IMG/VR virus record: IMGVR_UViG_2721755711_000006 | DNA length: 49,241 bases | Source: a virus | Lineage: Duplodnaviria; Heunggongvirae; Uroviricota; Caudoviricetes | Strand: one strand, 5' to 3' | Position numbers: made by a program | Shown: in pieces, positions 27,001-30,000 of the stretch | Layout of the letters: every line of letters begins with the position of its first letter | How positions within the stretch are numbered: position 1 is the first letter of the stretch

Positions 27001-30000
27001 GACACCATTGACAATTTCACAGACCTGAGAGGCAGCATCCAAAAGCTGACGCGCCCTATCCAGGCTGACGCATCCCGACAATAAAAAAGGCACCAGTATC
27101 GCTACCAGTGCCCATTTCGCCGCCGTTCGCGGCATTCTGTGTGTCCAGTGTTTTCGCGTCATATCACCACTCACGATTTCAGAGCAACAATCAACTTTGC
27201 CATCCCATACAGCATCGGAGACACGGCGATGCCGACCGCCACCCACTTAATGGCAAAAGCCACCGCTCTGCTGATGTCATCAGTTACAGGCGCTTTCAAT
27301 TCAAGGCCGTTTTTCATAGTCAACCTCAACAGAATTCGTTTATACTTCTCCATGTTCTCCCTTGCTTACTCAAGGTCAGAAACAGAAAACCCCGAACTGT
27401 TCCCGCAGCCGGGGTTTTTGCTTTTTATTTATCTGTATGGGCGCGACATCTTGCTATTTCATTCCGGGCTTCACTGTCGCCACGACAGATACAACGCGCC
27501 GTGTCACCGTTCAGTGTGATGATGTAGGCTTCATCCTCTTTTTCTACAGGAATGCACGGAATATTCCCGTCCCGGCAATACTCAATCTTCGCTGCAAGAT
27601 GAGTGTTACGCGGATAGAACTCCAGGCGGTACATATCCCCCAGGACATGCACTTCCTCAACATGACGACCGTCTTCTGTACCGTGATTTTCTTGAGTGCG
27701 TACATACGTACCTCCGTTCTTTCGTTTTTGAGTAATAAAAAAGGCCGCCGAAGCGACCTTTGTCAGAATTATTCACACCTTATGTCAGGATGTATGGCAA
27801 TCTCTGCAGCACCAGTAACATCCATTCACCCTCGTGTAACCCAGATTTTTTGCGGCCTTCACTGCCGGCTCACATGAGCTAAACTCTCCAAGCTCTTTAC
27901 GATTGTTTGCATCAGGAAGTCGAAAACATGTTTCTGTATGAACCTCATGATCGTTCTGATTATCTGTAAGAGTGTGAACATAGTACTTCATACGTATTTC
28001 TCCTTTTGGTTGCGTACGCCCAGGAGAAATTAAACGCAAAATACACTTAACTCATTGATAATGATCATTTTTAAATGCTATCACACAGCCACGCGCTCTT
28101 TCATCCAGCCATAGACAAACGACTCATTGGCCTCGCGTTTCTCTGCCAGCTCCAGATAACGCTCGCCCTGCGTACAGTTCAGGGCTTTCACCAGTACCAG
28201 TTCACCATCCCTGCTGCGATTTTTCAGATATGCCCGTAATGCATTAAGAGTACGCGGCCCGATGCGTCCATCTGCATCCATATCCGGATAGAGTTTCCCG
28301 CGCAGGTTGAAAACGTTCAGCCAGCGTTGAAGCATTCTGGACGCCACAGTTGGCCCCATGTTCACGCCCGTATCGCACAACTCTGCGGCAATATCAGGAG
28401 ACAGGTCCTCAACCTGGTCGAATCGTGGTCCGTACCAGTAGTCCGCCTCGAGTATTTCCAGCGCCTGCCCACGCGTCAGGTCACGCATATCGCCCTGATA
28501 ACCGTGTGCACGGGCAACTTTTTCAGTGATGCCCCATTTAGTCGGACCACCTTTATCATCCGGGTGATTGACGTAACCGCCCTCTTTTCCCAGAATTTCG
28601 TCAAAAATTTCATCTTTCGACTTCATATCAGCGCCTTCGTAATACAAGGATTTTTGATACGTTCCCGCGTGCTCGTATCACCAGCACGCAGAACACCAGG
28701 TTAATCAGGACGACCAGCCAGTTACCGGGTGGAAAGCGACCACACAGATAACAAAGCGGCGCAAAGGCATAAAGCAGCATCAGCAGCCAGGCCAGCCACG
28801 ACATCAGCGGTTTATGTCTCGACTCACCACGACGATAAAAAAAGAGCGTCAGCACGATAACCGTGCTTAACACCACATTCAGTAATCCGGGAAGGTTACT
28901 TAACATTACCGCCTCCACCCCGCAGACGGGAGAACAGCCCGGATACCAGCGATGCGATATCCTGCTGGTGGATGAATGAGAGAATCTTCACCGACACCAC
29001 CGATACCAGTACCGCGCAAAGCGCGTCGAGAGATGTGCTGTGGAGATTCAGTTTTTCAACCAGGTAAGACGCCATCACATCCGCCCCCAGCACGCCAACA
29101 ATGAACGACACCAGAAAATGCGCTGCCACACGCCAGACAGAAATCTTCTGTGGTATCGTGGCCACAAACAGCGCCCCTGCGAATGCACCAAACACAATCC
29201 CGAAATCCGTTCCGGTAAACAGCCCGAATACCGTCGCCCCGCCGAGCGCCGCAGCCGTGCCGGAACCGGATAAGGGTTCAGACATACTTTTTCTCCTGTA
29301 AATAAAAAAGGGCCTCTGTCGGCCCGTAAAAAAAACACCCCGTCAAAGGCACCCGCAGATACCTTTTGTGTGGTGTTATCTGGTGTTTTCTGATGTGGTG
29401 TGTACAGGACACAGATGTGAAAAAGGTCCGCCGGTACGAACCCTGTGTATGGATAAAAAAATGCCCGTCAGGAGACGGGCTAACGCATTCATCATGTAAG
29501 AGTTAAGCAGGATTACTTGTATCGAATTATCGGTATCAGAATGAGTCGTCAACCTGCAACCGCAATTCTGACGAATCGTAGGCCCCGGTACAGGCGACGA
29601 CTCATTCTGATAACGCATACCATTAACAATGTAAAAAACACAGCACTGAAACTGTAACCGGCCAGGCATTACAGAATGAAGAAAATAAAGTGTCCGCAAC
29701 CAGATTCTTCACGAAAATTCGCCAGTGCTGATAATAAAGCTATGACTCATCAGTTTTACTGGAGAGCGGGTGGCGGGAATCGAACCCGCATCATCAGCCT
29801 GGAAAGCTGAGGTAATAGCCATTATACGATACCCGCATACTGTGCTGGCTTCCGGAATCACACGAATTACCAGGAAAGCCAGCACTGGTCTTTCCGGTGG
29901 CAAGCAACACCCCTGTGAACATAAAGACAACCACCTTCCGGACCAGTCAGAATACTAACGACAGTTTTTCAGACATCAAAAATATATTTGGTGTTCAGTT

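Follow-up and report, generated by a model that had tools for sequence, protein, structure and literature searches.

A prophage-borne tRNA-Gly(UCC) gene between antiterminator Q and the lysis genes, probably in decay

Background

Transfer RNA (tRNA) genes of phages in the interval between the late antiterminator gene Q and the lysis genes are well known. Shiga toxin (Stx) phages such as 933W and its relatives carry ileZ-argN-argO downstream of Q, tRNAs for host-rare codons in the leader of the lambdoid late operon. Other lambdoid prophages possess clusters in which a tRNA-Gly(UCC) stands behind a tRNA-Thr, tRNA-Arg or tRNA-Asn: JLK-2012 has Asn-Thr-Gly after Q, SerU-LTIIb has Arg-Gly and Thr-Gly before the holins, and phi467, vB_EcoS-683R6 and many Escherichia coli prophages carry members of the same lineage. 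Common to these clusters are a U6-A67 pair in the tRNA-Gly, the location between Q or a methylase gene and the holin, and a TAT spacer; the tRNA-Gly is annotated in the public records, and our literature search found no paper describing it. Here, we analysed a tRNA-Gly(UCC) gene of this lineage on the minus strand, at positions 29765-29836, of the virus record IMGVR_UViG_2721755711_000006 (Caudoviricetes), a DNA stretch of 49,241 nt which is referred to as the window. The gene appears to be an ordinary, probably fading phage tRNA and no new kind of RNA; for a locus of this well-known type the value of the analysis lies mostly in the correct annotation.

The window differs from the cluster phages in that the upstream tRNA is a remnant and the tRNA-Gly carries U32, G38, C66 and the 3' tail CTCCA. 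With the Stx phages it has in common that tRNAs for host-rare codons are placed in a late-operon leader, but tRNA species and lineage are different, no toxin genes follow, and the window copy is not conserved. The T4-type tRNA-Gly(UCC), also a phage decoder of GGA and GGG, is about 81.5 % identical to the window over the tRNA. It is conserved across hundreds of genomes and located in the tRNA array of a virulent phage, whereas the window gene is drifting. Some T4 tRNA genes lack an encoded CCA. They parallel the window copy in its likely need for 3' trimming by the host and for the CCA-adding enzyme; unlike in T4, the CCA register in the window was lost by a recent insertion of two nucleotides. 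The host relative is E. coli glyT (tRNA-Gly2, UCC) of the thrU-tyrU-glyT-thrT operon, with the same D arm, anticodon stem, T arm, anticodon and discriminator. The window copy is instead prophage-borne and not next to tufB, and has U6-A67, C32U, A38G, U66C and a CCA displaced by CU.

Results and discussion

Identity of the tRNA gene

On the minus strand, 29765-29836 has the sequence GCGGGTATCGTATAATGGCTATTACCTCAGCTTTCCAGGCTGATGATGCGGGTTCGATTCCCGCCACCCGCT, with CTCCAG behind it; the 72-nt body is described here in the standard tRNA numbering 1-73. ARAGORN called a tRNA-Gly with the anticodon tcc at 29764-29836 (minus strand), and the Rfam family RF00005 matched 29836-29765 with 54.3 bits at a gathering score of 29 (E=5e-9 across the whole window), a match far beyond chance. 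The alignment to RF00005 contained the non-standard pairs A7.C66 and U13.U22 and no others. The latter is not a change of the window copy, since the D arm of glyT is the same, U13.U22 included. All four stems of the cloverleaf are present, together with the GG of the D loop and a T loop reading GGTTCGATTCC (expected conserved T loop, GTTCGATT). The identity set of the E. coli glycyl-tRNA synthetase (GlyRS) comprises G1-C72, C2-G71, G3-C70, C35, C36 and U73, and each of these nucleotides was found in the window copy. Host E. coli tRNA genes encode the CCA right behind the discriminator. In the window copy U73 is followed by CUCCA instead. The tail at 29760-29764 (minus strand) is thus a CCA shifted by a 2-nt CT insertion or duplication after U73.

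The base-by-base comparison with glyT of strain K-12 (NC_000913.3, 4175673-4175747) revealed C6U together with G67A, by which the pair is kept, C32U, A38G, U66C, which creates A7.C66, and the CU between U73 and CCA. The identity was 67/72 plus the 2-nt insertion. An earlier note made from the window sequence had described a cloverleaf very close to E. coli glyT with precisely these differences; all details, including the glyT sequence on which it relied, agreed with the real K-12 gene. On RF00005 the window copy scored 10-11 bits lower than glyT (64.9 bits) and the canonical phage allele (65.6 bits).

The prophage tRNA-Gly family

Related prophage tRNA-Gly genes were detected by megablast of the region in approximately 366-370 of 5426 complete E. 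coli genomes. They are nearly always annotated and usually located right behind a tRNA-Thr. A pattern scan of IMG/VR yielded 120 stretches. The common phage allele, GCGGGTATCG...CAGCCTTCCAAGCTG...CCCGCTACCCGCT-CCA, is glyT with U6-A67 and no other change, having C32, A38, U66 and an in-register CCA. Among the lineage copies with enough flanking sequence this canonical allele was identical in 23/29, and these copies adjoin 15 different downstream flanks and 13 different upstream tRNA sequences. Identity across such varied flanks indicates strong purifying selection on the canonical allele.

By its U6-A67 on a glyT-like body and its position in the slot between Q/methylase and holin, the window copy is a member of this lambdoid-prophage lineage. 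By its distribution, U6-A67 is ancestral to the whole family. The earlier note had read it as a compensatory change, and hence as a sign of a functional, evolving tRNA and not of a decayed attachment-site (att) fragment. This reasoning does not hold: the pair is an inherited family trait, and the changes specific to the window copy are uncompensated. A pair compensated with respect to the host gene that came from an ancestor is uninformative on the present copy. The description as a phage-borne glyT paralog and not an att fragment stands on other grounds, as the gene is of full length and the window contains no second copy of the 3' half.

A diverged member of the family was observed in E. coli A31 (NZ_CP028744.1, locus L139, 1524-1598) in the same Thr-X slot between methylase and holin. 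This tRNA-Gly-derived copy has the anticodon UUC, G38, G73 and an A5.A68 mismatch and is annotated by PGAP as tRNA-Glu. It looks like a shift of anticodon and identity within the phage tRNA lineage.

Order of the changes

Compared with the canonical phage allele, the window copy has four changes, C32U, A38G, U66C and the CU insertion, all of them uncompensated. In IMG/VR, searched with an anticodon-loop pattern and a tail pattern, the four were always found together (10 contigs), and the CTCCA tail occurred only with U32/G38/C66. The sublineage defined by them was present in 12 of the 5426 complete E. coli genomes, five of which are identical to the window in tRNA, tail and the following 30 nt, and in three metagenome contigs. 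The U32/G38 loop pattern was absent from a scan of GTDB with one genome per species, and the combination of U32, G38, C66 and CTCCA was absent from the 50,697 phage records searched. Members of the sublineage were confined to E. coli genomes and to IMG/VR and metagenome contigs. The exact window sequence is already known, being an annotated tRNA-Gly in five RefSeq E. coli genomes.

Several alleles carry part of the changes. E. coli M8 has the canonical allele with U32 alone, in an intact Thr-Gly pair. In E. coli O170:H18 (NZ_CP076706.1, locus L142, 701-775) U32 and G38 are combined with U66, a regular CCA and the same downstream CCAGTAAAAC, beside a tRNA-Arg and psiE. This copy bears four further lesions, G4A, G18A, A29U and C61A, and is an independent case of decay on a U32/G38 background. 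In JLK-2012, G38 is accompanied by C8. In E. coli CEA224S the leader and the remnant of tRNA-Thr in front of the gene are nearly identical to those of the window, yet the tRNA-Gly is canonical. Because of the intermediate alleles in M8 and O170:H18 and of the canonical tRNA-Gly behind the same remnant in CEA224S, these sequences indicate a path of stepwise point mutation without block replacement, from U32 to U32 plus G38 and then to the addition of C66 and the CU insertion. A tRNA-Gly ending in CACCCGCT-CTCCA (locus L088) was considered as an independent recurrence of the tail and judged a coincidence; the sequence is GC-rich, stands beside tRNA-like sequence and has a different D arm.

Loss of constraint in the sublineage

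Seventeen distinct sublineage contigs, a small and partly clonal sample, were aligned from 260 nt upstream to 33 nt downstream of the tRNA. Seven tRNA alleles were found. C50U was present in 11/17 contigs, C62U in three, and G53A and C65U in one each. Strain BCE049 and two further bovine strains had a 1-nt deletion in the 3' strand of the acceptor stem, strain PapRG-04-4 a deletion and a substitution. All six extra changes affect the T stem or the 3' strand of the acceptor stem, where they weaken the pairing; none is compensated, and 13 of the 17 contigs differ from the window allele by such additions. In two acceptor-damaged alleles (L133 and L001) ARAGORN found no tRNA; L001 reached 36.4 bits in Rfam. 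Variable columns numbered 6/72 in the tRNA and 3/154 in the upstream block of methylase end and spacer (Fisher p=0.03), 5/53 in the remnant of tRNA-Thr and 4/34 downstream. Neither a variability below that of the flanks nor a compensation of stem changes, as expected under purifying selection, was observed. The tRNA is at least as variable as its non-coding flanks, in sharp contrast to the canonical allele, and the pattern suggests relaxed constraint in the sublineage.

Probably, the window carries a phage tRNA gene that is impaired or dispensable and decaying, and that would act as a weak decoder of GGA and GGG at best. The family as a whole, with the tRNA-Gly(UCC) usually directly behind tRNA-Thr(UGU), tRNA-Arg or tRNA-Asn in the late-operon leader between Q/methylase and holin, most likely provides extra decoding of GGA and GGG during late gene expression, and ACA would be served in this way by the partner tRNA-Thr. 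GGA and GGG account for 40 % of the glycine codons in the prophage (31.6/1000), compared with 21 % in 38 K-12 genes (15.2/1000; chi-square p=4e-20), and ACA for 15.8/1000 codons in the prophage versus 5.7/1000 in the K-12 genes. This codon usage fits a supply by the Thr(UGU)-Gly(UCC) pair. A second possible role of the family would be to back up host tRNAs depleted by defence nucleases.

In the window this module seems to erode. The tRNA-Thr has been reduced to a hairpin, and the tRNA-Gly has gained C32U, A38G, U66C and the CU insertion. Pairing of U32 with G38 would tighten the anticodon loop: in the minimum-energy fold of the window variant the anticodon stem has 7 pairs and a loop of 3 nt, compared with 5 pairs and a 7-nt loop in glyT and the canonical allele. 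For U32, pairing with position 38 has been described, and C32U abolishes four-codon reading (PMC10853795). The acceptor stem would be less stable at its base because of A7.C66. By the CU insertion the encoded CCA is shifted out of register, so that 3' maturation would require the removal of CUCCA by RNase BN/Z or exonucleases, with the CCA re-added by the CCA-adding enzyme. RNase BN/Z of E. coli is capable of removing 3' ends other than CCA (PMC7479834). Alternatively, exonucleases may trim only as far as the displaced CCA, so that the tRNA would remain 2 nt longer than normal. Since the four changes the gene seems to have evolved without purifying selection, on the way to a pseudogene.

Several observations speak against decay. 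The window allele keeps the complete cloverleaf and scores well above the threshold, and it occurs unchanged in five complete E. coli genomes, one IMG/VR contig and one metagenome contig, within two flank haplotypes of which one is diverged. The most frequent extra change, C50U, results only in a G.U pair and is also present in the CCA-bearing second tRNA-Gly of SerU-LTIIb, so that it could represent standing variation without harm to the tRNA. Other glycine tRNAs of E. coli normally have U32, and many phage tRNA genes without an encoded CCA still work. Finally, the sample is small and partly clonal, and few sites underlie the comparison with the flanks.

Alternative explanations

These observations lead to the possible, although rather doubtful, alternative of a fully functional tRNA-Gly(UCC) with a retuned anticodon loop. 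U32.G38 would restrict reading to GGA and GGG or balance the strong G-C codon-anticodon pairing, the gene would supply rare-codon tRNA for the late genes, and the out-of-register CCA would be handled as in phage tRNA genes without encoded CCA. Besides the intact cloverleaf with all GlyRS identity nucleotides and the recurrence of the exact allele in several genomes with two flank haplotypes, the roughly twofold frequency of GGA/GGG in the prophage relative to host genes agrees with this. So do the natural occurrence of U32 alone in an otherwise intact Thr-Gly pair (locus L141) and of G38 without U32 in the sequenced phage JLK-2012. C32U is not described as killing a tRNA (PMC10853795), and the action of RNase BN/Z on non-CCA ends (PMC7479834) would offer a route to a mature 3' end. 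A tRNA under selection is hard to reconcile, however, with the further uncompensated stem-weakening changes in 13/17 contigs, two alleles no longer being called as tRNA, or with a tRNA no less variable than its non-coding flanks when the canonical allele is nearly invariant. In addition, O170:H18 has an independent U32/G38 copy with heavy damage, and the partner tRNA-Thr has already been lost.

A role in counter-defence is unlikely. Here, U32, G38 and the 3' tail would resist, or act as a sponge for, a nuclease of the host or a rival phage that attacks tRNA-Gly(UCC) or tRNA tails. For phage tRNAs with changes in anticodon loop or stem, an escape from tRNA nucleases has been proposed and for some of them demonstrated (PMC10264068). 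For the lambdoid phage 21, PMC12445682 reports that a tRNA-Thr(UGU) rescues cells from P2-OLD. This is the isoacceptor usually found upstream of the tRNA-Gly, in a lambdoid carrier, and the case demonstrates that lambdoid tRNAs can serve counter-defence. The derived substitutions of the sublineage include two loop positions, 32 and 38, which differ from glyT, and the anticodon stem of glyT (locus L004, 674-745) and of the phage copies, C28-A29-G30 / C40-U41-G42 with A37, matches by eye the P2-OLD motif given in PMC12445682. Yet no nuclease targeting tRNA-Gly(UCC) turned up, and glycine tRNAs are not named among the P2-OLD-cleaved species in the main text of PMC12445682. The anticodon stem is the same as that of the host, so a stem-based resistance is not expected. 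The variant is rare (12/5426 genomes) and not conserved within its own lineage. Moreover, the counter-defence function in phage 21 was demonstrated for tRNA-Thr, not tRNA-Gly, and in the window it is precisely the tRNA-Thr that has been deleted.

It is also improbable that the locus produces an altered, un- or poorly charged tRNA-like RNA, abundant from the late leader, which would serve as a nuclease decoy through its anticodon loop or tail or as a processing handle timing the expression of the holin. The earlier note had raised a regulatory or decoy function of the variant; nothing in support of such a role of the window tRNA was found in our analysis.

If the variant should prove to be selected, it would bear on the question whether phage tRNAs serve codon supply or counter-defence. 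The locus has a modest value as a worked example of how a stem pair compensated with respect to the host gene can be ancestral and then silent on the present copy. It also provides a natural allele series in one phage tRNA slot, from canonical to U32, U32/G38, the addition of C66 and the CU insertion, and finally broken acceptor stems, a series in which one could look for the steps that abolish tRNA function.

Flanking elements

Immediately upstream of the tRNA-Gly, the tRNA-Thr(UGU) remnant at 29840-29885 (minus strand) was recognized by alignment with the Thr/Arg-Gly clusters of JLK-2012 and SerU-LTIIb. On the 5' side, the remnant agrees with the initial 8-9 nt of the phage tRNA-Thr(UGU), the 5' strand of the acceptor stem, which is joined directly to the 3' part, made up of a degenerate T arm, the acceptor 3' strand and the usual TAT spacer. 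Between them, the D and anticodon arms have been lost, and CAG is found instead of CCA. In the place of an intact Thr, Arg or Asn partner, the window has only this internally deleted remnant, which neither ARAGORN nor Rfam called as a tRNA. It folds as a hairpin (-23.1 kcal/mol, z=-4.0). The pairing is gone in a third haplotype (L122/L131), hence the hairpin is regarded as a remnant and not as a maintained structure.

Further upstream, RNAalifold indicated a leader hairpin at 29884-29947 (minus strand), situated 3' of a promoter-like site. The pairs 18-55, 19-54 and 30-43 are changed on both sides in 4/9 distinct sequences, the haplotypes being GGTGG/CCACC versus GACGG/CCGTC; effectively these are two or three independent haplotypes, a thin basis. 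An origin of the leader from a tRNA-Asn was considered: MAFFT placed it on the anticodon arm of the tRNA-Asn of JLK-2012 with weak similarity, and a BLAST search of the leader against all loci matched its own lineage only. The promoter-like site TTGATG-16-TAGTAT at 29952-29979 (minus strand), read from the sequence, is a weak sigma-70-like candidate with 8/12 matches. It remained under the threshold of a sigma-70 scan, which flagged no promoter in front of the tRNA. The candidate lies in the upstream block from -259 to -106, the least variable part of the intergenic region (3/154 variable columns), and might function as a promoter.

Downstream, a repeat search, a terminator scan and reading of the sequence characterized an untranslated stretch before the holin at 29310-29615 (minus strand). 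A 20-nt inverted repeat, 29531-29550 / 29596-29615, is located between tRNA and holin, with 95 % complementarity and a loop of 45 nt. The other flank haplotype retains this repeat, one pair being changed on both sides as read from the alignment. The repeat matched no Rfam family. Three terminator-like hairpins with T runs, 29463-29480, 29420-29442 and 29310-29325, are stacked just upstream of the holin start. Two of them were obtained from the terminator scan; the one at 29420-29442, with its T run, was recognized on inspection of the sequence. All three would have to be passed by a polymerase modified by Q. The motif CUGAUGAG just 3' of the tRNA was considered as part of a hammerhead and rejected, since no hammerhead family matched at permissive Rfam thresholds. 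With the same thresholds only the tRNA passed in 29250-30100, the remaining matches to other RNA families lying far under their thresholds.

The position inside this long structured leader, comprising leader hairpin, tRNA-Thr-remnant hairpin, tRNA, 20-nt inverted repeat and three terminator-like hairpins, and the leader pairs changed on both sides would suit a non-decoding RNA-processing or structural element, a tRNA-shaped entry site for RNase P or RNase E that splits the methylase from the lysis message. Such a function is very improbable: the lesions of the sister copies hit the acceptor and T stems, exactly what RNase P recognizes, and the tRNA-Thr-remnant hairpin loses its pairing in another haplotype. 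An integration scar, in which an attachment-site copy of an inserted element replaced the 3' part of the tRNA, would account for the fact that the window copy departs from the canonical phage allele only from position 32 onward and for the sublineage-specific sequence just downstream (approximately 29386-29763), but is effectively refuted by the absence of a second, displaced copy of the tRNA 3' half in the 49-kb window with up to 3 mismatches allowed, by the shortness of the lineage-specific stretch, only about 380 bp that encode nothing recognizable, and by the intermediates with U32 only and with U32+G38 and CCA, which point to stepwise point mutation.

Prophage setting

The window contains a lambdoid prophage that adjoins smpB/ssrA at the window start and lies on the minus strand. 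It comprises tail fibre and tail genes, lysis genes, the tRNA, Q, replication genes and an integrase at 48042-49241. With the integrase at the far end, the prophage is situated next to ssrA with the integrase distal. According to their sizes, a run of long minus-strand open reading frames (ORFs) may represent tape measure, head and terminase genes.

Pfam searches placed the tRNA in the interval between Q and the lysis genes, as the earlier note had proposed. Upstream are the late antiterminator Q (33244-33627, Phage_antitermQ, E=5.5e-52) and, immediately in front of the tRNA region, a DNA methylase (30055-31101, N6_N4_Mtase), a gene order also present in related loci. Downstream, the lysis cassette starts with a first holin (28896-29285, Phage_holin_8), followed by a second holin (28628-28918) and a GH108 endolysin (28081-28647). 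All five genes are on the minus strand. On the opposite strand, the interval from Q to the methylase contains a complete porin gene of the Gram-negative type (31957-33063, plus strand; Porin_1, E=8e-152). This porin belongs to the prophage-borne kind represented by nmpC of DLP12 and lc of phage PA-2.

Further RNA elements were observed in the window. Rfam matched the C4 antisense RNA (82.9 bits) and isrK (57.9 bits) side by side at 37980-38168 (minus strand). Both lie within a mechanically predicted ORF of 731 amino acids, of which residues 460-654 match Ash and Rha of Pfam, and this part of the early region looks like an immunity module of the c4/antirepressor type. A full-length Rfam match to IS009 (206.9 bits) at 3336-3534 (minus strand) overlaps the ORF 3296-3877, which matches the tail-fibre assembly family Caudo_TAP. 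At the window start, the transfer-messenger RNA (tmRNA) gene occupies 698-1060 on the plus strand and encodes the tag ANDENYALAA; the tail-fibre end of the prophage follows within 200 nt, from position 1260 onward.

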